In this document: piece after piece, positions 3,413 through 20,218 of the stretch | How the letters are laid out: every line of letters starts with the position of its first letter | Numbering within the stretch: the first letter of the stretch is position 1 | Source: Flavobacteriales bacterium | GTDB lineage: Bacteria; Bacteroidota; Bacteroidia; Flavobacteriales_C; GCA-002722245 | Reading direction: 5' to 3' | Length of the DNA stretch: 64,000 nt | NCBI GenBank assembly: GCA_023251095.1 | Contig: JAHEZL010000007.1 | Location: 15,136 to 79,135, forward strand | Notes under the pieces: generated by a model | Seen by the model: the letters and a program-made list of their open reading frames with translations, nothing else | The model's database searches: none | What the model was told of the DNA's origin: nothing | Translations under genes and position numbers: made by a program

Positions 3413-4636
3413 TTAGAAGGTGCGCTGATAAGGGGTGGTTAAGGTAACTTTGGTACCTGAGGCCTGATTGTTATGATCGTACAAATCGGAGATTTGTATT
3501 TTTACACGGTCGTTTTTGTGCAAACTTTTAATGTGGTTTTCAGTAATCTCCATTCCCAGTGATTTTCTGTCTTTAAGTTCACTTGCAGCCTTTCGGCCAA
3601 TGCCATTGTCTTCAATTTCAATATGCAGGTGATCGTTCGGCCGCGGATGGATGCGTATCCATAATTTGGGCTGTTCTTTTTTCTGGAAGGCATGGATCAG
3701 TGCATTTTCCAGGTAGGGTTGAATGATAAAGGCCGGAATCTGAATGTCTTCAATATCCAAATCAGGATGGATGTCCAGTTCAAATGAAAAATTGTGCATC
3801 ATAGAGTGGTGCAATTCCAGGTAATGTTCCAAAAATTCTTTTTCTTCTTCAAGGCTATGGTAGAGTTCATCCGACTTTTCGAGGTTTAAGCGCAGCAGGT
3901 TGGAAAACTGAATGATTTGTGTGTGTGCCTCTTCATTCTTTTTGTCGTGAGTAAGATTGGTGATGGAGGTTAGCGCATTAAAAATAAAATGCGGGTTAAT
4001 CTTGAGTCGCAGATTTTTTTGCAGCAATTCACTGTTTTGCTGCTCGATCTTCAGGGTTTTGAGATAGTTTTTGTAACGGACTCTTATAATAACGTAATGG
4101 GCATAAATACAAATGATAAGCATGGTCACCTGATGGATAATCACAAAAGGAGCATTGCTGGTATTGGCAGTTGCAGGAGAGAAATAGATAACAATGGAAA
4201 GGTAAATGCTGTTCACCAGTAAAAGTGTGGTGATGCCATAGCGACGGGTGGAGGGAAGGAATAAAGTAAAAGCAACTTCCGTATGAATAAGGTTGATGAT
4301 ATAATTGTTGTTTTCCCAACCGTTGCCCATGAGTCCGGCATTGAGGGCATTTGGGATCGTATTGAGTATCACTGCCACGAGATAAATCATCTGGAACCAT
4401 TGCTTGATGAATTTCGGAAAAACATAGGAGCTTGCCAGAGCAAGGGCACAAAAAGAAATGGAAACGTATTTCAGGAAGGTGACAGCCGGCGGAACATTAC
4501 TTCTGAAAAAATCGGGCAATATACTGGAGATAAAAATCAGGATAACACCAACCAATGCCGTGATTCGGAATGAAGGCATTATTTCGGCGGAAAGGTGTGT
4601 CCAGTATTTATTTTTTTGTTTGGCGGATATAAACAT
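3413..4636 (-). CDS. Membrane sensor histidine kinase of the LytS/YehU family (HK1). It has no adjacent response regulator.
   Basis: The N-terminal half has several transmembrane segments. The NPHFIFNAL His_kinase (PF06580-type) motif and a C-terminal HATPase region (IEDNGIG) are present. It is a paralog of the 8662..9897 kinase. Confidence 0.8.
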   Translation of the reverse strand: MFISAKQKNKYWTHLSAEIMPSFRITALVGVILIFISSILPDFFRSNVPPAVTFLKYVSISFCALALASSYVFPKFIKQWFQMIYLVAVILNTIPNALNAGLMGNGWENNNYIINLIHTEVAFTLFLPSTRRYGITTLLLVNSIYLSIVIYFSPATANTSNAPFVIIHQVTMLIICIYAHYVIIRVRYKNYLKTLKIEQQNSELLQKNLRLKINPHFIFNALTSITNLTHDKKNEEAHTQIIQFSNLLRLNLEKSDELYHSLEEEKEFLEHYLELHHSMMHNFSFELDIHPDLDIEDIQIPAFIIQPYLENALIHAFQKKEQPKLWIRIHPRPNDHLHIEIEDNGIGRKAASELKDRKSLGMEITENHIKSLHKNDRVKIQISDLYDHNNQASGTKVTLTTPYQRTF

Positions 4637-4760
4637 TAGTATAAATGGGGGCAGCTATAAAATTGTTCTTACTCTTTCCTTTTTTTGATTTCTCTTCTCT
4701 TCTCGCGGGAGACACAAATATATGTATTCGTAGGAGAGTAGAAAAAATGTTTTTGCTTCT

Positions 4761-4792
4761 TGCCGTTAAAATAGTCGAATCTGCCGTTAAAT
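4761..4792 (+). promoter_or_regulatory. Direct-repeat pair TGCCGTTAAA x2, 22 bp apart, upstream of A1. This is a putative LytTR operator.
   Basis: Exact 10-mers at 4761-4770 and 4783-4792 lie 34 bp upstream of the TAGATTTG box. Confidence 0.45.
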
Positions 4793-4816
4793 AAATGGAT
4801 GTTTGTTTTGTTTTTT

Positions 4817-4824
4817 TATACCCT
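4817..4824 (+). promoter_or_regulatory. Candidate -7 promoter box TAGATTTG for the A1-B1 transcript.
   Basis: It matches the Bacteroidota TAnnTTTG consensus. It sits inside a 16-nt block (TAGATTTGCTGCCGAG) that is identical to the one upstream of A2. Confidence 0.4.
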
Positions 4825-4872
4825 AGATTTGCTGCCGAGGAAACTAAATTTATTAAACTAAAAAAATCTCTT

Positions 4873-6108
4873 ATGAGAAAGATATTGTTATGCTTGTCGG
4901 CAATTGCCTTGAATGTTTCTGTTAATGCACAATGGACCGGAACTAATCCAATAACAACCACCAGTGCCGTTGGTATTGGAACTACAACTCCTGTTGCCGG
5001 TAATATATTGCAATTAGAAGGAGGGCATTTGGCTATGTACGGCGGTTATATTCTTCCTTATGCAGGAAATTCAACAGTTCTGTTCCGCTCTGTGAATAAT
5101 AATTTTCCTAATTATTGGCTCCCTGAAAATTTAAATACTTACCGTCAATTTGAAATCGCACATGTTAGTCCAAATGGAGTAGATGTTGCCAACAGAAGAG
5201 GGTTCTTAAATCTAGCGGCAAATCAATATATTCAAATGAATGTCAATGGTTTTGATAAAATGAAAGTGGAGGAAACGGGGGTGTCGTTTAATGTAGCTCC
5301 AATCAATTCCTGGGCATCCAATGATGCTTTGATATTCCGTTCAATAAATAACAATTTCAATGGTGTTGTAACACCTCAATTTGAAATTAAACATGTTGAT
5401 CCTAATGGAGTAGAGCTTGCCAACAGAAGGGGTTTTTTGAATATAAAGGCAGATGCCGGAGTATTAAATTTAATGAGTAATCAAACGATTGTCATGTTTA
5501 CCAATGGTGCGCAAAGAATGGCTGTTGATGTAAATGGTAATGTGGGAATTGGACAATCAACGCCGGCTGCTAAGTTAGATGTTAATGGAACAGTAAGACT
5601 TGCTATACCGGGAGCGCAAGCGAGTTATGTATTGACATCATCCAATACAAGTGGAGATGCTACATGGCAGCCAATTTCTTCTTCTCAGTGGACAACAAGT
5701 GGTTCAAATATTACTTATTCAACAGGAGGGAATGTAGGAATAGGAACCAATAATTTTAGCACTCAGGCTACTACTCCTACTAATTCAAGTCAAAACAATT
5801 ATTATAAGTTGGCTGTTAATGGTTCTGTTCGTGCCAAAGAAGTTATGGTAGAATTAAATTGGGCTGATTATGTGTTTTCTAAGGAATATCAACTGAAATC
5901 ATTAAAAGAGGTTGAGCAATATATTAATCAGAATGGACATTTGCCGGGTGTTCCATCTGCTAAAGTTGTGGAAAATCAACAAGTGGGTTTGGGGGAATTG
6001 GCAAAAATTCAACAAGAAAAAATAGAAGAATTGACCCTTTATATTATAGCGTTGAGCAAACAATTAGAAACTCAACAAAAACAGATTGAAATTTTATCTA
6101 CAAAATAA
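4873..6108 (+). CDS. Secreted repeat protein with a tail-fibre-like C-terminal domain and a terminal coiled coil (A1).
   Basis: The listed ORF begins at 4795, but the signal peptide MRKILLCLSAIALNVSVNAQ starts at the ATG at 4873. Internal ~90-aa repeats contain ELANRRGFLN. The C-terminus reads AKEVMVELNWADYVF..LKSL.EVEQYINQNGHLPGVPSA, followed by a coiled coil. It is a paralog of 10361..12232. Confidence 0.5.
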   Translation: MRKILLCLSAIALNVSVNAQWTGTNPITTTSAVGIGTTTPVAGNILQLEGGHLAMYGGYILPYAGNSTVLFRSVNNNFPNYWLPENLNTYRQFEIAHVSPNGVDVANRRGFLNLAANQYIQMNVNGFDKMKVEETGVSFNVAPINSWASNDALIFRSINNNFNGVVTPQFEIKHVDPNGVELANRRGFLNIKADAGVLNLMSNQTIVMFTNGAQRMAVDVNGNVGIGQSTPAAKLDVNGTVRLAIPGAQASYVLTSSNTSGDATWQPISSSQWTTSGSNITYSTGGNVGIGTNNFSTQATTPTNSSQNNYYKLAVNGSVRAKEVMVELNWADYVFSKEYQLKSLKEVEQYINQNGHLPGVPSAKVVENQQVGLGELAKIQQEKIEELTLYIIALSKQLETQQKQIEILSTK

Positions 6109-7906: not shown

Positions 7907-8659
7907 TTATTCTCCAATTGCAAACTGACTCAAAAAATCATCCTTCCTTCTTCTGGCCACGGCGATTTTTGCGCCGTTTTTCATCACCGCAAAACCACTG
8001 TGTTTTTCATACGATTTTACATGATCGAAATTAATCAGATGTGTTTTGTGAACCCTGAAAAATCTGCTGTCCTTTAGTAGCGTTTCGTATTCCTTTATGG
8101 TTTTGCAAACCAATACAGAAGATTCATCCATGAAAATGAATTTAGTGTAGTTGCCATCTGCTTCGCAGCGGGTAATTTCGTTGATGTTTACAAATTTATA
8201 TCCGCTCGAATCAGGCAATGCAATCTGATGTAAAGTATCGGTTTTAATATTTTGAATAAGACTGTTTATTTTTTTGTTTTCCAGTGAAGTATTGTTTTGC
8301 AAAACAATTTTTTCAAGTGCTTTTTCAACCGCAGTTTTTAATTCAGAAGGATCTATCGGTTTTAAAATATAATCAATCGCAGAAAATTTAAAGGCCTTTA
8401 CTGCAAATTCATCAAAGGCTGTAGTGAAGATGAGTTTGAACTGAATGTTTTCCAGTTTTTCAAAAACAGAAAAACTATTTTCATCTTCCAGCTTTACATC
8501 AGAAAAAACAATTTGAGGGTTATGCGTTTGAATGGCTTTAATCGCCTGCTCTACATTGGTTGCGTGCGCCACAATTTTTATTTCGGGAAATAACGCATTT
8601 AATAAAGATTTTAAATAATCATGAGCCGGCATTTGATCTTCAATGATGATTGCATTCAT
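7907..8659 (-). CDS. LytTR-family response regulator (REC domain plus LytTR DNA-binding domain).
   Basis: An N-terminal receiver domain (IIEDQ...FSDVKLED) and a C-terminal LytTR domain (...FFRVHKTHLINFDHV...) are present. It lies immediately downstream of HK2 on the same strand, consistent with one operon. Confidence 0.85.
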   Translation of the reverse strand: MNAIIIEDQMPAHDYLKSLLNALFPEIKIVAHATNVEQAIKAIQTHNPQIVFSDVKLEDENSFSVFEKLENIQFKLIFTTAFDEFAVKAFKFSAIDYILKPIDPSELKTAVEKALEKIVLQNNTSLENKKINSLIQNIKTDTLHQIALPDSSGYKFVNINEITRCEADGNYTKFIFMDESSVLVCKTIKEYETLLKDSRFFRVHKTHLINFDHVKSYEKHSGFAVMKNGAKIAVARRRKDDFLSQFAIGE

Positions 8660-8661
8660 AT

Positions 8662-9897
8662 TTAAAAGGTTTTTTCGTAAGAAGTAATTAAAGATACTTT
8701 GGTCCCCGCCGGCTGTCCGTTTTTGGCAAATAAATCCATAATTCTGATACTGATATTATCATTTTTATGGAGGGTTTTAATTCTGTTTTCAGTGATGTCC
8801 ATACCCATCGATTTTCTTTTGCTTTCTTTTTTTAATGCTGCCGCTGCCTTTCTGCCAATGCCATTGTCTTCAATTTCAATGGCTAAATATTCCTCGGATT
8901 GAGGACGTATGCGGATGCAAAGTTTATGTTCGTCATTGTTTTGAAAGGCATGTATCAGCACATTTTCCACATAAGGCTGAATGATAAAAGCGGGAATTTG
9001 TATGTTTTCGGTTTCCAGTTCCGAATCAATTTCCATAACAAAAGAAAAGTTTTTCGACATGCTGTGTTGCAGGTCGAGATAGGAGGTCAGGAATGTTTTT
9101 TCTTCTTCTACACTATGGTACAGCTCGTCGGATTTTTCAAGGTTGAAGCGCAATAGATTTGAAAACTTTACGATGTGCTCATGAGCCTCCTCGTTTTTTT
9201 TGGCGTAGGTTAAATTGGCAATGGATGAAAGTGCATTAAAAATAAAATGAGGATTGATTTTTAAGCGCAGGTTTTTTTGTAACAATTCATTTTTCTTTTT
9301 TTCAATTTGTAAGGTTTTCGAAAAGTTTTTATAACGAGCTCTTAAAATAGCATGGTGGCCGTAAATACAGATGGTGAGCATGGTCACCTGATGAATTAAA
9401 AGGAAGGGCATATTTTTAGTGGGACTTCCAACCGGACTGAAATAAATGTTATTAAAAAGATAAATGATGTTGATGATGATAAGCGTTGCCAATCCGTAAG
9501 GTCGCGATGAAGGCATAAATACGGTAAAAGCAATTTCAACGTGAATTAAATAGATGACATGGTCATTCGCGCCCCATCCTCCGTCTAAACCCGAATGAAT
9601 GGAGTTGGGCAGCATGATTAATACAACAGCCAGCAGATAAATCAGCTGGAACCATTTTTTGATTATTTCGGGAAAGAGGTAGGAAGTCACAATAGCTACC
9701 ACACAAAAGGCTATGGAAACGTATTTCAAATTGGTGATGGCGGCAGGCACTCCTCCGGTGCGGTAATCGCGCAGCGGCCCTGCTAAAAAAACCAGTACAA
9801 CAGCCGACAATAAAGTGATTCTGAAAGAAGGCAATATTTCTTCTCCGATATATCTCCAGTAGTCTTCCCGTTGTTTAGCAGATATAATCATTTGCAT
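8662..9897 (-). CDS. Membrane sensor histidine kinase of the LytS/YehU family (HK2), a paralog of HK1.
   Basis: It has the same NPHFIFNAL and HATPase blocks as HK1, with a diverged transmembrane sensing half. There is a 2-bp gap to the response regulator. Confidence 0.8.
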   Translation of the reverse strand: MQMIISAKQREDYWRYIGEEILPSFRITLLSAVVLVFLAGPLRDYRTGGVPAAITNLKYVSIAFCVVAIVTSYLFPEIIKKWFQLIYLLAVVLIMLPNSIHSGLDGGWGANDHVIYLIHVEIAFTVFMPSSRPYGLATLIIINIIYLFNNIYFSPVGSPTKNMPFLLIHQVTMLTICIYGHHAILRARYKNFSKTLQIEKKKNELLQKNLRLKINPHFIFNALSSIANLTYAKKNEEAHEHIVKFSNLLRFNLEKSDELYHSVEEEKTFLTSYLDLQHSMSKNFSFVMEIDSELETENIQIPAFIIQPYVENVLIHAFQNNDEHKLCIRIRPQSEEYLAIEIEDNGIGRKAAAALKKESKRKSMGMDITENRIKTLHKNDNISIRIMDLFAKNGQPAGTKVSLITSYEKTF

Positions 9898-9963
9898 AAA
9901 AGATAACTAGGAGATAACTTCTCTTTAGTTGTTTTGATTTTGAATGTTTCTCGACCTGATAAG

Positions 9964-9971
9964 CAAATATA
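9964..9971 (-). promoter_or_regulatory. Candidate Bacteroidota -7 promoter box (TATATTTG on the minus strand) for the HK2 and LytTR-regulator genes.
   Basis: It matches the TAnnTTTG consensus about 65 nt upstream of the HK2 start codon. Confidence 0.3.
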
Positions 9972-10049
9972 TAAATTTTCGTTGCACGCGATAAATTTGT
10001 TTTTTGAGTAAAATATTGGAAGAGTGCCTATTAAGGAAGGGTGGCCGTA

Positions 10050-10146
10050 AAATTAAAAACCCTCCCGTGATACGGGAGGGTTTTTTAAGATAGCTAGGCT
10101 ACAGGCTTCTTATTCAACATCTGATTTTTAAAATCACAATGTTTTC
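10050..10146 (-). ncRNA. Candidate small RNA, copy 1. It contains the conserved box GCCTGTAGCCTAGCT and a palindrome, and ends in an intrinsic terminator.
   Basis: On the minus strand a TAAATTTG -7 box (10160..10153) lies downstream of the direct repeats. The hairpin CCCTCCCG-tgata-CGGGAGGG at 10060..10080 is followed by a T-tract. No CDS is present. A paralogous element lies at 18765..18905. Confidence 0.3.
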
Positions 10147-10202
10147 GATAGTCAAATTTATATTGAAAATCCGGAAACACACAGGAAACGGGCATGCACT
10201 TA

Positions 10203-10231
10203 TTTAACGGTAGGGATTACTGTTTTAACGG
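10203..10231 (-). promoter_or_regulatory. Direct-repeat pair (CCGTTAAA cores 21 bp apart) oriented toward the minus strand. This is a putative LytTR operator.
   Basis: The + strand has tttaacgg at 10203-10210 and again at 10224-10231. It lies 45-70 bp upstream of the minus-strand -7 box of the candidate sRNA. Confidence 0.4.
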
Positions 10232-10247
10232 TAAGTGATTAAAATTA

Positions 10248-10278
10248 TGCCGTTAATTCAGTCGCCGCTGCCGTTTAA
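10248..10278 (+). promoter_or_regulatory. Direct-repeat pair oriented toward A2 (tgccgttaat and tgccgtttaa, 21 bp apart). This is a putative LytTR operator.
   Basis: It has the same core and spacing as the 4761/4783 pair upstream of A1. The LytTR regulators AgrA and AlgR bind 9-10 bp direct repeats with ~12 bp spacers. Confidence 0.45.
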
Positions 10279-10310
10279 TAAATCTCACTTTTATTTTGAT
10301 TTTTATCACC

Positions 10311-10318
10311 TAGATTTG
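10311..10318 (+). promoter_or_regulatory. Candidate -7 promoter box TAGATTTG for the A2-B2 transcript.
   Basis: The box and its flanks are identical to those at 4817-4832. Confidence 0.4.
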
Positions 10319-10360
10319 CTGCCGAGTAACCTAAAAATATTAAACTAAAAAAACACTCAT

Positions 10361-12232
10361 ATGAAAAAAATGTTATTATGCCTTTCGGCAATCGCCCTTA
10401 CCTCTGCTGCGAATGCACAGTGGACAGGAACCAATCCATTAACAACTCCAAGTGCTGTTGGAATTGGTACATCACCTACCCTTAATTATATTCCTTTGCA
10501 GGTTCGTGCCGATGAGAGTTTATTTGGCGGAAGTGGAATTGTTGCTTCTTTTGAAAGATTCTCTCCAAATCCACTAAGTACAGGAAAACTCAATATTACA
10601 GTGAGTGATTTCGGTGATAGTTATAATGCGGGTGATATATTGATGGATGCTCAGGGGAATGCGGATATCGCATTAAGAACCCAAGGAGGATCAGGCGGGA
10701 TTTTGGTATTAAAAAGAAACGGAACAGTTGGTATCGGAACAGGTACTCCAACTACTGATGCGGCTGTGAAATTACATATTAAATCTTATGGAGCGGATCC
10801 ACAAAACGCTCAAATATTAATTGAATCTTCAGAAACACAAGCTGTGAGATTTGCTCGCTCAGGCATCAATACCTGGATCATGGGAAGAAGAGCAAGCGAC
10901 AATGCTTTTTCAATTACAGATTCCTATTTTTTCGACGGTAACACAGAGAAATTTGTTTTAAATGGTTCAGGATTTTTAGGATTGGGTGCGCAAACTCCAT
11001 CTGAGAAATTAGATATATTAAATGGTAACCTTAAATTAACGAACGGTACTTTTTTACCTTACGGAAATGATACAAGAGTTCTTTTCCAATCGCACAATAC
11101 TTCTGCATCAGGTAGTCCGGTTCAATTTGAAATGTTGCATCAGTCTAGCGGTGTTGAGCTAGCCAACAGAAGAGGATATCTTACTATGAGAGCCGATGAT
11201 GGTAATTTGAATTTACTGAGTTCTCAAAAAGTTTTAATGTACACAGGAGGAGTTCAGAGAATGGTGGTTGATCCAACCGGAAGAGTGGGAATTGGTCAAA
11301 CAGCGCCTGCATCAACATTGGATGTGAACGGAACCTTAAGATTGAGTGTTGCGGGAGCACAAGCAGGCTTTGTATTAACAGCCACCAATGCAAATGGAGA
11401 TGCTACATGGCAGGCACTTCCTACACCTGCTACACAGTGGTCAGTAAACGGAGCAGATGTATATCGTTCTACCGGAAATGTTGGTATTGGAACAAATACA
11501 CCTTCTGCCAGATTCCAGATAGTAGATGGTTCTACTCAAATGAGTTTAATGAGTACAGGTGTTAGCTCAGGAATGTACGGCACACAGTATTATGCAGGAA
11601 TTAATTTTGAAGGAGGAGATAAGATTACAGTTGGAAAAACTTTTAATCCAAATACATACGGAAGTCATTTCGCAATTAAAAATGAAACGAGAGCAAATTC
11701 GGCTTTAATTGCCTTGGCCTATGATAAAGTATACATTGGTGGAAGTTCAGCAGGAGTTAATGCGGTAAGTTTCAGCAATGACGGAGTTGTAAATATCGGA
11801 AGCGGAACTATCCCAGCCGGAAAAGGATATATGCTGGGTGTGAGAGGTAAAATTATTTGCGAAGAAGTAAAAGTTGCTTTGCATGCAGACTGGCCTTGGG
11901 CGGATTATGTTTTTGCTGACGATTACAAACTTACGTCTCTTGATTCATTAGAATCATACATCAAAGAAAACAAGCATTTACCAAACATCAGCTCAGCTAA
12001 AGAAATCAAAGAAGAAGGAATTAACCTGGGCCAAATGCAAAACAAGCACATGGAAAAAATCGAGGAGCTGACTTTGTATATTATTGAGTTGAACAAAAAA
12101 TTATCTGAGCAACAACAGTTGAATACTACAGCTAGTAATTTACAGGCTCAACAAGCTAAGCAAATTGAGCAACTTACTTCAGTGTTAATGGAAGTTAGCA
12201 AGAAAGTGGCAGAGCAAGCGCAGTCGAAATAA
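10361..12232 (+). CDS. Secreted repeat protein with a tail-fibre-like C-terminal domain and coiled coil (A2), a paralog of A1.
   Basis: The signal peptide is MKKMLLCLSAIALTSAANAQ. ELANRRGYL repeats are present. The C-terminus reads VKVALHADWPWADYVF..LTSLDSLESYIKENKHLPNISSA, followed by a coiled coil. Confidence 0.5.
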   Translation: MKKMLLCLSAIALTSAANAQWTGTNPLTTPSAVGIGTSPTLNYIPLQVRADESLFGGSGIVASFERFSPNPLSTGKLNITVSDFGDSYNAGDILMDAQGNADIALRTQGGSGGILVLKRNGTVGIGTGTPTTDAAVKLHIKSYGADPQNAQILIESSETQAVRFARSGINTWIMGRRASDNAFSITDSYFFDGNTEKFVLNGSGFLGLGAQTPSEKLDILNGNLKLTNGTFLPYGNDTRVLFQSHNTSASGSPVQFEMLHQSSGVELANRRGYLTMRADDGNLNLLSSQKVLMYTGGVQRMVVDPTGRVGIGQTAPASTLDVNGTLRLSVAGAQAGFVLTATNANGDATWQALPTPATQWSVNGADVYRSTGNVGIGTNTPSARFQIVDGSTQMSLMSTGVSSGMYGTQYYAGINFEGGDKITVGKTFNPNTYGSHFAIKNETRANSALIALAYDKVYIGGSSAGVNAVSFSNDGVVNIGSGTIPAGKGYMLGVRGKIICEEVKVALHADWPWADYVFADDYKLTSLDSLESYIKENKHLPNISSAKEIKEEGINLGQMQNKHMEKIEELTLYIIELNKKLSEQQQLNTTASNLQAQQAKQIEQLTSVLMEVSKKVAEQAQSK

Positions 12233-14576: not shown

Positions 14577-14606
14577 TACCGTTAAATAAATCAATATAAC
14601 CGTTCA
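14577..14606 (+). promoter_or_regulatory. A third copy of the operator-like motif (CTACCGTTAAATAAAT plus a second CCGTT core 21 bp downstream), upstream of B3.
   Basis: The 13-mer CCGTTAAATAAAT is shared with the A1 site, and CCGTTtAATAAAT with the A2 site. Confidence 0.35.
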
Positions 14607-14775
14607 TCCTTTTTATTTTTTAAAGAGACTTATCTGCTATAATTTGGTGCTATTGATTATGGGAGTAATCAACTTGAGCATAACTAAAACATAAATTGTG
14701 AAAAGAGTGTTGATCTGCCTTTCGTTATGGCCTTGAATTACCATAACGACTTTTAAAATAACTAAACCTGAACTT

Positions 14776-16980
14776 ATGAAATTAAAAAACTATTCTAGAT
14801 ATCTGTTGATAGCATTGTGTGTCATGGCCGGCAATTTATTTGCTACTCCGGTTACCTTCAATTATTTTACTCCAACTACATCCATTGGTGCTCTTTCTGT
14901 TACAAAAAAGATTGCGTCCGAACACAATGGCTCCATTTGTAGCGGTGAGTATATGACCATATTCGCATCCGGACATACTTCAATTGTGAAGCCATATATT
15001 ATTGTAGAAGGAATAGATTTTTTAAACGATCAGGATTTTCAGGCGCATGTGGATTTATACAACAATAATGTGTCTTCAGCTTCAAATTCTTTGTTGTTTA
15101 ACCTTTACAATAATGGCTATGATGTTATCATACTGGATTTTGATTATTCCGGAGATTATATTCAAAACAATGCTTTCCTGTTAGTGGAATTAATAAAACA
15201 CATCAATGCCATTAAAGCCAATACAGGTAATAATATGATCGTACAAGGTTATAGCATGGGTGGTTTAGTTGCGAGATATGCATTGACATGGATGGAAGCT
15301 AATCTGATTGAGCATCAAACCAGGTTGTTTATTACTCATGACACGCCACACAAAGGAGCAAATTTCCCTATAGGCCTGCAGGAATTAGTGAACGATATGA
15401 CAGAACACATGCCTATTGCTTGGGTTGGGTTTCAAACTATTTTGGCTTCATTTGAAAAATCATATCCAGGCGCTACTCAAATGTTAGTATACCATTGGTC
15501 ACATACACATGGTGGAACTGTTAGCGGTGCAGGAAGTAAAGCACTGCCCGCAAATAAAAAAATAAATTTTTTCCAGGAATTGTATAATCTTAATCCCAGT
15601 GATAATGGTTACCCTTCTAAACCGCTGAGAATTGCTGTTTCAAATGGAAATTATTCAGGTCAACTTCAGGCGGGAATTACCCCGGGAGATGCAATGTTAA
15701 GTTTCAATTATACCCGCACTGTAGGAACAAAGCATTACAAATGGCCTTCTCCACTTTGCGGCAGTCTTTTTGACTTTAATGGATGTGACATTAACTGGGG
15801 TGATGATTATTACAGAGGTACCGCTCGTTATGGATTTACAGGTTATACTGCTACTGAAAATTTTGAGTTTTATACTTCCGGAATTGCAGATTTCGGGAAT
15901 TTGGGTACAAGGACTTATTATCCGCTTTCGGGTAGTGGTTCGCAAAATTTTTCTACAGAAAATTACGATTATGATCGTGCACCGGGGTCCTACCTGCCAA
16001 GTTTCTTTTTAACGATAGTCGAAGATGCCATTAAAACGGGACTTACTTCAGATGTATATATTAATCCTAATCCGCCTTGCTTCATTGCCACTACAAGCGC
16101 ATTAGATTTAAATATGCCTATCAATTCAACTTTCGATCCTAATAACTCTCGTTGTTTTACCAATTTTGATTACATCTTTGCTAACAGTTCGGCCAATTTA
16201 CACCATTTTGAATTGGCTCCTTTGGCAAAAAACTTTATAATGACACATGTTTTGGTTAATGAGGTGCCTAATAGGCCAATTGCTTATCAGGGGTATGATT
16301 TAGTTATTCCCAATAATACTATTGTTTATTCCGGACAATCCTATAACAAAACAGTTCAGCATAACATTACTAATGCTGGGAATTTCACGCTCAAAAGCAA
16401 TAGCTCTTCTGGATTGATTGCTGGAAATTCAATTACCTTTTCCCCTGGTTTTAAAGCAGAAACAGGAAGTAATTTCTCTGCGAAAATAAAATCTGCAAGC
16501 TCAATGTGTAGTGGTGGAATAGCGTATTTACCAAATTATGTCCTTGATTATGTAGTGGGAGGTCCCCCGGTTGAAAATGGTCCGTTGCCAGAAGAAAATA
16601 CAACGGAAGACTTTAGTAACTATGTAGCTTATAATTGCTCAAATATGGAAGAAATGCCTAATTATTCTTCTGAACGAACTTACTTTATTTGTGATGTTGA
16701 TACAACCATTAATATTGATTCAACGCTTGCGCAAAACATTAGTATATATCCTAATCCTACCAGCGGGCCTCTGACCATTCAACTAAGCGATCAAATTCCT
16801 TTAAATGATTTGTCAATTAAAGTTTTTGATCCCTATAACAATTTAGTTGCTGAGTTTTTGACAGTAACATCAAGAACGGTGAATTTAGATTTTTCCAATG
16901 GCTATACAGGCTTGTATAATGTTCAGTTTAATTTCTTTTCCGGCGCGTACATTTATAGCCGGAAAGTCATGAAAATGTGA
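14776..16980 (+). CDS. T9SS-secreted alpha/beta-hydrolase (PGAP1-like lipase or esterase), a paralog of B2 (B3).
   Basis: There is a signal peptide. The motifs are IVQGYSMGGLVARYAL and HDTPHKGAN. The C-terminal T9SS CTD reads YPNPTSGPLTIQL...GLYNVQF... Confidence 0.6.
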   Translation: MKLKNYSRYLLIALCVMAGNLFATPVTFNYFTPTTSIGALSVTKKIASEHNGSICSGEYMTIFASGHTSIVKPYIIVEGIDFLNDQDFQAHVDLYNNNVSSASNSLLFNLYNNGYDVIILDFDYSGDYIQNNAFLLVELIKHINAIKANTGNNMIVQGYSMGGLVARYALTWMEANLIEHQTRLFITHDTPHKGANFPIGLQELVNDMTEHMPIAWVGFQTILASFEKSYPGATQMLVYHWSHTHGGTVSGAGSKALPANKKINFFQELYNLNPSDNGYPSKPLRIAVSNGNYSGQLQAGITPGDAMLSFNYTRTVGTKHYKWPSPLCGSLFDFNGCDINWGDDYYRGTARYGFTGYTATENFEFYTSGIADFGNLGTRTYYPLSGSGSQNFSTENYDYDRAPGSYLPSFFLTIVEDAIKTGLTSDVYINPNPPCFIATTSALDLNMPINSTFDPNNSRCFTNFDYIFANSSANLHHFELAPLAKNFIMTHVLVNEVPNRPIAYQGYDLVIPNNTIVYSGQSYNKTVQHNITNAGNFTLKSNSSSGLIAGNSITFSPGFKAETGSNFSAKIKSASSMCSGGIAYLPNYVLDYVVGGPPVENGPLPEENTTEDFSNYVAYNCSNMEEMPNYSSERTYFICDVDTTINIDSTLAQNISIYPNPTSGPLTIQLSDQIPLNDLSIKVFDPYNNLVAEFLTVTSRTVNLDFSNGYTGLYNVQFNFFSGAYIYSRKVMKM

Positions 16981-18441: not shown

Positions 18442-18767
18442 TGGAAATTTCAGCTTATCAGAAAGAAGTGGATCAGTGGATCAAAGATCACGGCGTTCGC
18501 TATTTTAATGAACTCACCAATACTGCTTTGTTGATGGAAGAAGTGGGGGAGTTGGCACGCATCATGGCGCGGAAATATGGCGAGCAATCTTTTAAAAATG
18601 CCGAAGAAGAAAAAAACTTAGGCGATGAAATGGCCGATGTACTTTTTGTGCTCACTTGTTTGGCCAATCAAACAGGAGTGAATCTGGAAGAAGCGATTAA
18701 ACGAAACATGGAAAAGAAAACTTCGCGCGATAAAAACCGACATAAAGAGAATGATAAATTGAAATAA
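18441..18767 (+). CDS. MazG-like nucleotide pyrophosphohydrolase (YpjD family).
   Basis: The EEVGELARI and DEMADVLFVL motifs are present, at 108 aa. Confidence 0.75.
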   Translation: MEISAYQKEVDQWIKDHGVRYFNELTNTALLMEEVGELARIMARKYGEQSFKNAEEEKNLGDEMADVLFVLTCLANQTGVNLEEAIKRNMEKKTSRDKNRHKENDKLK

Positions 18768-18905
18768 AAAAAACCTCCTGTTTAAGGAGGTTTTTTTTGT
18801 TTAGCTAGGTTACAGGCACTCTTACCAACATGTATATTTTCACATGTTTTTTTATAGTTGTAAGGATCAACTGGGTTAAAAGTATAGTGAAAACAGCAGA
18901 AGCCC
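18765..18905 (-). ncRNA. Candidate small RNA, copy 2. It contains GCCTGTAACCTAGCT and a stem AACATGT/ACATGTT, and ends at the bidirectional terminator.
   Basis: The 3' ~60 nt align with copy 1 (TAGCTAGGYTACAGGC..CTTA..CAACAT..ATTTT..ATGTTTT..ATAGT). Three CGG-core repeats lie upstream at 18928-18981. The -7 box is imperfect (TATCTTTT). Confidence 0.25.
18774..18790. terminator. Bidirectional intrinsic terminator (CCTCCT-gtttaa-GGAGG) flanked by A8 and T8.
   Basis: The hairpin has an A-tract upstream and a T-tract downstream. It terminates the mazG-like gene on the + strand and the candidate sRNA on the - strand. Confidence 0.55.
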
Positions 18906-18927
18906 ACCATAAAAGATAGAGCACTTA

Positions 18928-18981
18928 TTTTGCGGTAAGAAATGCAGTTTTATCGGTTGGATTTATAGATTAACGGCAGGG
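18928..18981 (-). promoter_or_regulatory. Three operator-like repeats (TTTTGCGGTAAGA, TTTTATCGGTTGG, ATTAACGGCAGGG) at ~20-21 bp spacing, oriented toward the minus strand.
   Basis: They resemble TTTAACGGTAGGG and TTTTAACGGTAAG at 10203-10235. The flank CACTTATTT is conserved in both copies. Confidence 0.3.
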
Positions 18982-19062: not shown

Positions 19063-19356
19063 TTATTCATGCTTGCAGCATCCTTTTTTACCTTCTTTGC
19101 TGTCGCATTTTTTATCAGCAGCACAGCATTTGTTTTTCTCACACAATGCTTTGCATTCTTCAGCAAGTTTTTTACCTGCTTCGCTGTTTTTTTCTGCATC
19201 GGTCATGGCTTTGTACTGAGCACATTTTTCCTTGCATACTTTGTCTTTGCAGTTTTTACAGCAGTCGGCTTTTTTACAACAATCACCATCTCCGGCGTTA
19301 GCGGTAAATGCGAAGGCAAATAAAGCGATGAATAACATTCCTATATACTTTTTCAT
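19063..19356 (-). CDS. Small secreted Cys- and Lys-rich protein (16 Cys in a ~76-aa mature region), possibly metallothionein-like and metal-binding.
   Basis: The signal peptide is MKKYIGMLFIALFAFAFTANA. There are CC, CxxC and CxxxC clusters. A terminator lies downstream. The opposite-strand ORF 19069..19323 is a Phe-rich shadow. Confidence 0.45.
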   Translation of the reverse strand: MKKYIGMLFIALFAFAFTANAGDGDCCKKADCCKNCKDKVCKEKCAQYKAMTDAEKNSEAGKKLAEECKALCEKNKCCAADKKCDSKEGKKGCCKHE

Positions 19357-19410: not shown

Positions 19411-19734
19411 TCAAACTTTAGGAGGGTTCCACGCTTCTCCGTTGAAAACAGAAAGTATGTTTTCTGAACGTAAATTCATTTTTTCTTTGGTGACAACAGC
19501 TTTTTTAAAAGAAAGGGTTTGCGATTGTGGAATAAAGCCCATCATGGAGCAGCAGCTTACAAAGGGATTACAGCCTTTTCCGTAGCAATTTTTTTTGTGG
19601 TTTTTTTCAGGAGTTTGTTCGTTTTTTACTTTGCAACAGGAGTGTTCTTTTTTCACTTCATGATTGGCCATCAAAGTATCTGCTGATACCAGTATTAAAA
19701 TATGAAGGGCCAATATGCTTGCTAAAAATTTCAT
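19411..19734 (-). CDS. Small secreted Cys-containing protein of unknown function (CC...C..C...CC pattern).
   Basis: There is a signal peptide (MKFLASILALHILILVSA) and cysteine pairs (SCCKVK..., CYGKGCNPFVSCCS). Confidence 0.4.
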   Translation of the reverse strand: MKFLASILALHILILVSADTLMANHEVKKEHSCCKVKNEQTPEKNHKKNCYGKGCNPFVSCCSMMGFIPQSQTLSFKKAVVTKEKMNLRSENILSVFNGEAWNPPKV

Positions 19735-19798: not shown

Positions 19799-20218
19799 CT
19801 ACTTACAGTTGCAGTCTTTTTTCTCATCAAGTAAACCGAAATCAGTCACTACTGTTGAGGAGGTTCGCACATCCACAACAACGAAATACTCCTTGTTGTT
19901 TAAAGGGATTTCAATGTAATAGGTTTTAGGCGCTTTGTGAACGTTGGTGCGATCGTGGTTAAATTCAACGTCGCCATCGTGAATGCCTTTTGTGATTTGA
20001 ATTTTTGAAGTGTTATGGCACGTTGCTATGCATTGAACACTGTCGCTCAAACTGATTTTACTTTCCATGATGGCCGATTTCACTCTGTTGCCCGGCAACC
20101 AGCTTACAGCATTATTATTCAAAGGATCGTCTTCGCGTTTCATTAATGAATAAACAATAACTAAAGAGGTAAGACCTGCGCTGGTAAAGAAAATGATGAA
20201 TCGTCGTTTGCGTGTCAT
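19799..20218 (-). CDS. Hypothetical membrane-anchored protein.
   Basis: It has a single N-terminal transmembrane segment and no recognisable motif. Confidence 0.3.
   Translation of the reverse strand: MTRKRRFIIFFTSAGLTSLVIVYSLMKREDDPLNNNAVSWLPGNRVKSAIMESKISLSDSVQCIATCHNTSKIQITKGIHDGDVEFNHDRTNVHKAPKTYYIEIPLNNKEYFVVVDVRTSSTVVTDFGLLDEKKDCNCK

Follow-up and report, generated by a model that had tools for sequence, protein, structure and literature searches.

Does the 463-bp gap between two divergent genes of an uncultured Flavobacteriales bacterium from a sparsely sampled lineage, the histidine kinase gene HK2 (minus strand) and the signal-peptide protein gene A2 (plus strand), give rise to a small RNA controlled by a LytTR-type response regulator? 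The unit under study lies in this gap, within the window analysed here, a 64-kb stretch (64,000 nucleotides, nt) of contig JAHEZL010000007.1 in assembly GCA_023251095.1; contigs identical to the window are present in several metagenome assemblies. A sequence-only reading had proposed that the minus strand of the gap carries a LytTR-driven small RNA (sRNA) resembling agr P3/RNAIII. The features listed for this unit, hereafter copy 1, were all found where that reading had placed them, and a second unit, copy 2, was found 8.7 kb away. We put the probability at roughly 0.55 that copies 1 and 2 are two LytTR-activated small non-coding RNAs of ~93 and ~106 nt that act through a conserved 16-nt stretch, a figure that jointly covers the membership of both RNAs in a small regulon of fibre-like proteins and hydrolases of the type IX secretion system (T9SS). 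Such a LytTR-driven sRNA pair is plausible on the features described below and would be new for the phylum.

Copies 1 and 2 and their predicted transcripts

Copy 1 is composed of LytTR-type boxes, a promoter element, a 5' hairpin, a conserved box and a terminator, arranged as follows.

10224-10231 and 10203-10210, minus strand: tandem LytTR-type boxes CCGTTAAA (two copies), a direct repeat with a 21-bp period
10187-10191: third CCGTT of copy 1
10153-10160, minus strand: Bacteroidota-type -7 box TAAATTTG, beginning 50 nt past the start of the proximal box; the copy 2 equivalent aligns with it
10055-10147, minus strand: sRNA1, predicted transcript of ~93 nt, its 5' end predicted 5-7 nt past the -7 box
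10116-10143, minus strand: 5' hairpin, an imperfect palindrome with a 12-bp stem and one bulge, -5.4 kcal/mol
10091-10106, minus strand: conserved 16-nt box GCCTGTAGCCTAGCTA, that is GCCTGTAGCCTAGCT(A), predicted to be weakly paired or unpaired and 15/16 identical to copy 2
10060-10080: terminator core CCCTCCCG-TATCA-CGGGAGGG, core -16.4 kcal/mol, with TTTTTAATTTT next to it
10055-10086: terminator hairpin extended by A/U pairs, symmetric with T-runs on both strands, -22.0 kcal/mol

The CCGTTAAA boxes had been described as an inverted pair; both lie on the minus strand and form a tandem direct repeat 21 bp apart, inverted only relative to the plus-strand pair that faces A2 (10250-10278). The perfect -7 box TAAATTTG at 10160-10153 is present on the minus strand as proposed, the palindrome expected in the ~90-nt stretch beyond it proved imperfect and folds into the bulged 12-bp stem, and the strong hairpin with its U-tract at 10060-10080 is lengthened by A/U pairs to 10055-10086. 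sRNA1 is predicted to fold into the 5' hairpin, a weakly structured middle that holds the 16-nt box, and the terminator. Folding of the whole unit, suggested as a check, gives z = -6.0 to -6.6 against shuffles, a value owed mostly to the terminator. The stretch had also been called free of open reading frames (ORFs), which stands in that copy 2 conserves none of them; two ORFs, 33 and 22 amino acids long, do overlap the copy 1 unit, both beginning upstream of the -7 box and neither with a counterpart in copy 2.

A discrete transcript is predicted from the -7 box, the orphan -22 kcal/mol terminator and the lack of a conserved ORF. Placed between divergent genes, the terminator serves neither of them, and the suspicion that it might merely stop plus-strand read-through is not borne out, as it serves no plus-strand gene; a short transcript born inside the gap is therefore the simplest account. 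A generic sigma-70 promoter and terminator scan of window positions 9800-10450 reported neither element at copy 1, despite the -22 kcal/mol hairpin and its T-run. The promoter null reflects the different promoter signals that this organism uses, and the terminator null probably arises because the scan's tail rule fails where A/T pairs extend the stem into the T-run. Terminators with A/T-extended stems may escape that scan elsewhere too.

Copy 2, on the same strand, holds its parts in the same order.

18766-18976, minus strand: copy 2, whole unit, 8.7 kb from copy 1
18928-18976, minus strand: degenerate boxes CCGTTAAT, CCGATAAA and CCGCAAAA, with spacings of 20 and 21 nt
18877-18884, minus strand: -7-like box TACTTTTA, a 7/8 match, beginning 51 nt past the start of the proximal box
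18766-18871, minus strand: sRNA2, predicted transcript of ~106 nt
18857-18871, minus strand: extra 5' hairpin of sRNA2
18827-18848, minus strand: sRNA2 hairpin with an AACAT/ATGTT base as in copy 1; upper stem and loop differ
18802-18817, minus strand: sRNA2 box GCCTGTAACCTAGCTA, 15/16 identical to copy 1
18766-18798, minus strand: sRNA2 terminator, unlike that of copy 1 in sequence, -15.6 kcal/mol

The two copies are collinear from the boxes through the terminator, with a shared 16-nt box of consensus GCCTGTA(G/A)CCTAGCTA and a common flank, AATAAGTGC. The 15-mer box of copy 1 recurs once in the window with one mismatch (18803-18817), where simple arithmetic gives ~0.006 expected matches. Local alignment of the transcribed parts scores 38, compared with 10.4±2.0 for dinucleotide shuffles (p<=0.001), and the same alignment without the terminators still scores 26, compared with 8.8±1.8 (p<=0.001). 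Loops, upper stems and terminator stems have diverged between the copies yet pair in both. The absence of any paralogous or orthologous copy had been named in advance as evidence against the sRNA; a paralogue is present at 18766-18976. It is flanked by two terminators: on one side is that of a cysteine-rich ORF, and on the other the rsgA-dtd-mazG operon ends, a plus-strand operon on which copy 2 converges. As nothing co-oriented lies downstream of copy 2, the design shared by the two copies cannot be that of a leader for a downstream gene.

Box-bearing promoters and neighbouring genes

The pattern CCGTT-N16-CCGTT occurs four times in the 64-kb window, compared with 0.07±0.26 times in shuffles, none of which (0/100) reaches four. 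All four sites are intergenic, each ahead of a Bacteroidota -7 box. The fourth intact site is that of copy 1 (10231, minus strand), and a fifth, degenerate set belongs to copy 2; the others precede protein genes.

4763-4831, plus strand: box pair and TAGATTTG before A1, offset from box to -7 box 40 nt
10250-10318, plus strand: box pair and TAGATTTG before A2, offset 40 nt; this pair and the sRNA1 boxes stand back to back
14579-14646, plus strand: box pair and -7-like ATAATTTG before the third lipase gene, offset 39 nt

Counted between the first nucleotides of the proximal box and the -7 box, the offset amounts to 39-40 nt at these three promoters; copies 1 and 2 have 50 and 51 nt, respectively, one helical turn longer. 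An offset of 40-41 nt recurs before an A-type paralogue in locus L090, at two promoters in L063, and in L005, and a spacing of 39-41 nt at protein-gene promoters holds in the window and three other genomes. A transcription start 5-7 nt past the -7 box would put the centre of the proximal box near -60 in both small units. For ComE, the reported site is a pair of 9-bp direct repeats joined by a 12-mer linker (PMC4005675), and AgrA recognizes two direct repeats, the proximal one near -60 at P2/P3 (PMC4227749); the box pair of the window shares both the 9-bp + 12-bp layout of ComE and the ~-60 position of AgrA. Both units present two ~9-bp direct repeats with a ~12-bp spacer at a fixed distance before a predicted promoter, and the locus encodes a cognate LytTR-domain regulator, as expected for a LytTR-activated regulatory RNA. 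From the regular box geometry and spacing we infer that this neighbouring regulator binds the CCGTT boxes. The box-to-promoter spacing can serve as a practical criterion when Bacteroidota genomes are searched for direct targets of this regulator family.

The genes around the small units are these.

3413-4636, minus strand: HK1, a kinase paralogue with 62% identity to HK2 that spans the entire protein, N-terminal sensor half included
4873-6108, plus strand: A1, a signal-peptide repeat protein, divergent from HK1
7907-8659, minus strand: response regulator, next after HK2, with REC (E = 1.2e-15) and LytTR (E = 3.1e-17) domains
8662-9897, minus strand: HK2, a PF06580 histidine kinase (Pfam scan)
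9964-9971, minus strand: -7 box of HK2, TATATTTG, upstream of the HK2 start at 9897, with no CCGTT pair before it
10361-12232, plus strand: A2, a signal-peptide protein with no Pfam domain
14776-16980, plus strand: third T9SS lipase gene

The separate promoter box that had been ascribed to HK2 is confirmed at 9964-9971. The REC-LytTR protein encoded at 7907-8659 is the presumed activator of the boxes. The N-terminal half of the HK2-type kinase, in which the Pfam scan found no match, was read as membrane-embedded. HK1 has no response-regulator gene beside it, its next gene encoding a two-domain GTPase read as Der/EngA, and a single LytTR regulator may be fed by both kinases.

Like A1 and A2, a third paralogue found in the same sample (L090 4771-6405) is a repeat-built signal-peptide protein. 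Each of the three is preceded by a CCGTT box pair 40 nt before TAnnTTTG, and each is the first gene of an operon that also encodes a GH16 enzyme with a T9SS tail, a DUF676 lipase or a PKD protein. In the PDB, the A2 sequence weakly matches two Bdellovibrio proteins, 8ond (bd2133; E = 2.9e-7) and 8ojn ('cell wall surface anchor family protein'; E = 7.7e-6), which are fibre proteins. Taken together, the A-type genes and their operon partners resemble a regulon for surface attack or adhesion that the LytTR system would control. Upstream of copy 2, the minus strand holds small ORFs at 19063-19356, 19411-19734 and 19799-20218 that have no Pfam match; two of the three are cysteine-rich with signal-peptide-like starts (e.g. 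CCKKADCCKNCKDKVCKEKC).

Proposed function and alternative explanations

In the mechanism that we favour, the phosphorylated REC-LytTR regulator, fed by HK2 and probably by the orphan HK1, would bind the CCGTT direct repeats as a tandem dimer and so activate the Bacteroidota-type promoter (-7 TAnnTTTG). Transcription would end after ~93 or ~106 nt at the strong intrinsic terminator predicted in each unit. Each resulting RNA, as far as sequence and folding indicate, would comprise the 5' hairpin, a mostly unpaired GCCUGUA(G/A)CCUAGCUA and the terminator hairpin. The conserved stretch would most likely base-pair with target mRNAs. The regulon, in which the remaining box-driven promoters would serve the fibre-like secreted proteins A1 and A2 and T9SS-exported hydrolases, would thereby gain post-transcriptional control. 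A minor second role is possible for copy 1, in that leakage through its terminator could couple expression of HK2 and the regulator to the same signal. The 3' part of the sRNA1 box, CCTAGCTATCTT (10091-10102, minus strand), also matches the HK2 leader CCTAGTTATCTT-TTATG (9901-9912, minus strand) in the same sense at 12/13 positions; in an improbable variant, the RNA would thereby mimic the HK2 translation-initiation region (CCUAG[C/U]UAUCUU, same sense, 12/13) as a decoy. A broader notion, RNAs derived from or mimicking kinase leaders in general, is not established: a four-way alignment looks collinear, yet p is 0.06 for sRNA1 and the HK2 leader and >0.4 for every other pair.

Searches for relatives covered RNA families, genomes and the flanks of the locus. 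At Rfam 15 gathering thresholds the whole window yielded 0 matches, RNAIII and Bacteroides sRNAs included. Permissive Rfam searches of both copies gave sub-threshold matches only, Phe_leader at 21.5 and 32.1 bits against a threshold of 55 and BTnc231 at 20.2 against 80.4; the best of these are generic terminator or leader look-alikes. Searches by blastn with both units against the window and 89 loci, and inspection of a further ~13 kb of flanking sequence in this genome and of another contig of the same sample, revealed no further copy. A covariance model was impractical, as MAFFT set the two hairpins out of register and an alignment of two sequences has no statistical power. Full-length HK2 homologues are very few among 5.8 billion proteins, and a protein-anchored kinase search in species genomes returned, among the matches listed, only distant paralogues at most 41% identical and restricted to the kinase core.

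Two sets of chance or unrelated matches were discarded. A single JGI metagenome match to the pattern TGTTG-N8-GCCTGTANCCTAGCT lies, by translation, inside a fabF-like (beta-ketoacyl-ACP-synthase-like) coding sequence, and 25 viral-contig matches to the 16-mer have no ATGTTG upstream, no terminator downstream and no similarity in their flanks. The 16-mer GCCTGTA(A/G)CCTAGCTA recurs in the related phage contigs L101, L104-L107, L110, L114 and L118. Its reverse complement there falls within a conserved coding region (...AEIARLQAQIDALEAE*) and encodes ...IARLQAQ..., an unrelated context.

Units of similar layout occur beside kinase-regulator genes in two other genomes. In L005 and L006, where the kinase (56% identical), the response regulator (63%) and RsgA (75%) are orthologous to those of the window and the kinase-regulator pair diverges directly from rsgA, the gap holds a box pair, TATACTTG, ~125 nt and a terminator. 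Orthology of the L005 unit to those of the window was considered and dropped: GCCTAGCT sits in its terminator loop, and the terminator occupies the place of the lipase-3 terminator in the window. This unit is counted here as an analogue only. L063, from a metagenome-assembled genome (MAG) of Saprospirales (4707-4935), presents three CCGTT boxes, TAGATTTA, a perfect 9-bp palindrome at the predicted start, ~130 nt without a convincing ORF and an 11-bp terminator, and directly precedes a second box pair driving an operon of a LytS-type kinase and a LytTR regulator that is unrelated to the pair in the window; it too appears analogous in layout. In L007 and L008, whose kinases are 42-43% identical, the box pair serves an A-type gene and there is no small unit.

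The closest relative, a Flavobacteriales MAG (GCA_046074525.1; L092 and L093) with an RsgA 88% identical, keeps synteny from Der through the A-type gene to rsgA-dtd-mazG. At L092 9291-9660, and likewise in L093, the start of the kinase gene appears, as read from the sequence, fused to the end of the regulator gene, and no more than a LytTR fragment of 62 amino acids is called. The gene-free gap is seen in an independent assembly too, and the neighbouring box pairs are degraded. The sRNA1 box and the terminators of sRNA1 and sRNA2 are all missing. Joint loss of the units and the regulator fits a functional link between them, and also fast turnover of non-functional DNA.

Several results weigh against two functional sRNAs. 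The exact pattern TGTTG-N8-GCCTGTANCCTAGCT occurs 0 times in 185,579 species genomes, and in the scans no orthologue conserves the 16-nt box, hence no evidence from covariation. Orphan terminators upstream of LytS-type kinase genes are rare, found at 1-2 of 69 other Bacteroidota loci (L063 and, doubtfully, L024). The L005 unit shares with sRNA2 only GCTAAAC and the A-tract and terminator (p=0.002, a significance that generic terminator composition probably inflates) and does not resemble sRNA1 significantly (p=0.12), and the L063 unit shows no sequence similarity to the units of the window (p>0.3). TAnnTTTG by itself is not enriched in the window, with 61 occurrences found and 83 expected; the boxes of copy 2 are degenerate and its -7 box lacks the final G. 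A target search in ~100 kb of the same genome, covering exact complements of the box, duplex energies at 49 start regions and 9-mers with G:U pairs allowed, stayed at background throughout. Conservation rests on two copies in one genome, which a fairly recent duplication or gene conversion could explain. Overall, the proposal of a LytTR-box-driven sRNA is partly supported: it came through the sequence-level tests and gained an adjacent regulator with a LytTR domain; the orthologues with covariation that were to support it did not appear.

Some of these results would be expected of non-functional relics, that is, decaying promoter duplicates beside bidirectional terminators whose shared box reflects recent duplication, gene conversion or a site acting at the DNA level. 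Over 50 nt the copy 1 box region and the A1 promoter are 74% identical, a sign that duplication has spread promoters within the regulon; the units are not retained in the closest relative, the scans gave no orthologue with the box, the boxes and -7 box of copy 2 are degenerate, and its terminator also serves the mazG operon. Against relics, the two units share what the mRNA promoters lack, namely the 50/51-nt offset, the AACAT/ATGTT hairpin base, the 16-nt box and the terminator position. Identity is focused on the box (15/16) while flanks, loops and stems have diverged, a pattern that points to selection and not to recent copying, and the relative without the units has also lost the kinase-regulator pair, as a functional link predicts. 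We regard relics as unlikely, though the likeliest of the rival readings. Rather less probable is a cis-acting leader of the HK2-regulator operon, in which leaky or conditional read-through would provide positive autoregulation with the short RNA as a by-product. Copy 1 is indeed co-oriented with HK2 and directly upstream of it, the -7 box of HK2 has no CCGTT pair so that read-through would be the sole autoregulatory route, the order of small unit and kinase recurs in L063, and the top sub-threshold Rfam matches are leader or attenuator models. Those matches score far under threshold and span mainly the terminator, however, and copy 2 has only the antisense of mazG, dtd and rsgA downstream. 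HK2 owns a perfect -7 box, the hairpin is very stable at -22 kcal/mol, and the minimum-free-energy folds show no alternative antiterminator pairing; the combination expected of an attenuator or leader, a co-oriented gene downstream with an antiterminator, was not found.

The symmetry of the copy 1 hairpin also allows transcription from the other side. A perfect -7 box, TAAATTTG, at 9992-9999 on the plus strand faces the hairpin at 10055-10086, and this too speaks against the minus-strand sRNA; it could drive an RNA of ~85 nt that ends at the same hairpin, where TTTTTT follows on the plus strand, instead of or alongside the minus-strand RNA, with a fold about as stable (-33.1 kcal/mol, z = -5.8). 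Such a transcript is improbable to a marked degree. It has no box pair ahead and no paralogue, the plus-strand sequence before the copy 2 hairpin being mazG coding region, and a TAnnTTTG arises about once per 2 kb by chance; the 16-nt box lies past the terminator in both copies, and only a minus-strand transcript would contain it. With the plus-strand box at 9992-9999 facing the hairpin at 10055-10086, a pair of convergent short RNAs may end at the one terminator. Least credible is a micro-peptide gene encoding, for example, a leaderless signal sensed by HK1/HK2. The sole ORF common to both copies has eight codons, MLNKKPVA in copy 1 (ATG TTG AAT AAG AAG CCT GTA GCC TAG) and MLVRVPVT in copy 2 (ATG TTG GTA AGA GTG CCT GTA ACC TAG), with ATG-TTG, the reading frame and the TAG stop kept in both. 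The order of boxes, small gene, kinase and regulator mirrors comCDE, activated by ComE through such repeats (PMC4005675), and the kinase offers an N-terminal half without Pfam match that was read as membrane-embedded. Yet, of the six codons that follow ATG-TTG and precede the stop, four have changed, all non-synonymously, whereas the conserved codons are identical at every base, and nucleotide conservation runs past the stop (TAG-CTA). In both copies the hairpin (the 5' hairpin in sRNA1) includes the AUG in its 3' arm, there is no leader peptide, the Pfam scan of the neighbours showed no processing or export gene, and reading of the L005 and L063 units gave no ORF like it. The comparison points, as weak evidence from two sequences, to constraint at the nucleotide level. 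An ORF of ~40-60 amino acids with a leader and an exporter, as in a pheromone precursor, was not found, the longer ORFs of 33 and 39 amino acids being unrelated and starting upstream of the -7 box. A variant in which the units are dual-purpose or mainly coding, the 8-codon peptide sensed by HK1/HK2 forming a self-inducing cell-cell signalling circuit over fibre adhesins and T9SS lipases, is a comparably long shot; we know of no LytTR peptide quorum sensing in Bacteroidota.

Comparison with known systems

Small RNAs driven by response regulators are a well-known design, exemplified by RNAIII, VR-RNA, csRNAs and Qrr, and the regulatory RNA biology of Bacteroidota is much younger. In what a full-text literature search on LytTR, small RNA and Bacteroidetes together brought to the surface, there was only genomics work. 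If real, the two sRNAs would represent a LytTR-controlled RNA output in Bacteroidota and an entry point to a compact regulon that comprises fibre proteins like those of Bdellovibrio as well as lipases and glycanases secreted by the T9SS. Judged by their sequences, the units of the window are unrelated to any described RNA family, and the likenesses that follow concern architecture.

The CiaR-dependent csRNAs of streptococci and the Qrr RNAs of vibrios are present as several paralogous RNAs of ~90-150 nt per genome. Each of them combines a conserved single-stranded region with a terminator of its own and a response-regulator-dependent promoter whose geometry is fixed. They have known targets, and Qrr a known chaperone. 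The two-copy, conserved-box architecture of the window units is alike, whereas the regulators, the OmpR-type CiaR and the sigma-54-dependent LuxO, are of other kinds and there is no sequence relation. Precursors encoded by comC, plnA and agrD measure ~40-50 amino acids and come with leaders and dedicated exporters. In contrast, the window offers an 8-codon ORF without coding-type conservation, and a strong terminator parts the unit from the kinase gene; what it shares with comC, plnA and agrD is a small box-driven element directly upstream of, and co-oriented with, kinase-regulator genes, ComE acting through such repeats (PMC4005675).

RNAIII, 514 nt long, encodes delta-haemolysin and is divergent from agrBDCA. 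The unit of the window differs in its predicted length of ~93 nt, in having no convincing ORF, in its co-orientation with the kinase gene and in its duplication. The parallel to agr P3/RNAIII drawn by the sequence-only reading thus holds loosely: LytTR-type boxes near -60 beside a kinase-regulator operon are common to both, as AgrA, a LytTR protein, acts on two direct repeats near -60 (PMC4227749) and its regulatory RNA lies beside such an operon, whereas sequence and structure are unrelated.

The VirR regulon of Clostridium perfringens is the closer analogue. VirR, a response regulator of the LytTR family, differs from the system of the window in phylum, in its box (CCAGTT instead of CCGTTAAA), in the promoter (-7 TAnnTTTG in the window) and in the kinase family (PF06580 in the window), with no sequence relation, and its function and regulator dependence have been demonstrated where ours are inferred from sequence. 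In strain 13, the VirR motif marks five promoters, of which those of pfoA and ccp serve secreted proteins and those of vrr, virT and virU serve regulatory RNAs, virT adjoining a box-driven protein gene (PMC4963840). The window shares with VirR/VirS the paired direct repeats and a very small direct regulon, here of five box-bearing promoters that precede three secreted proteins or hydrolases and two short, putatively non-coding units.

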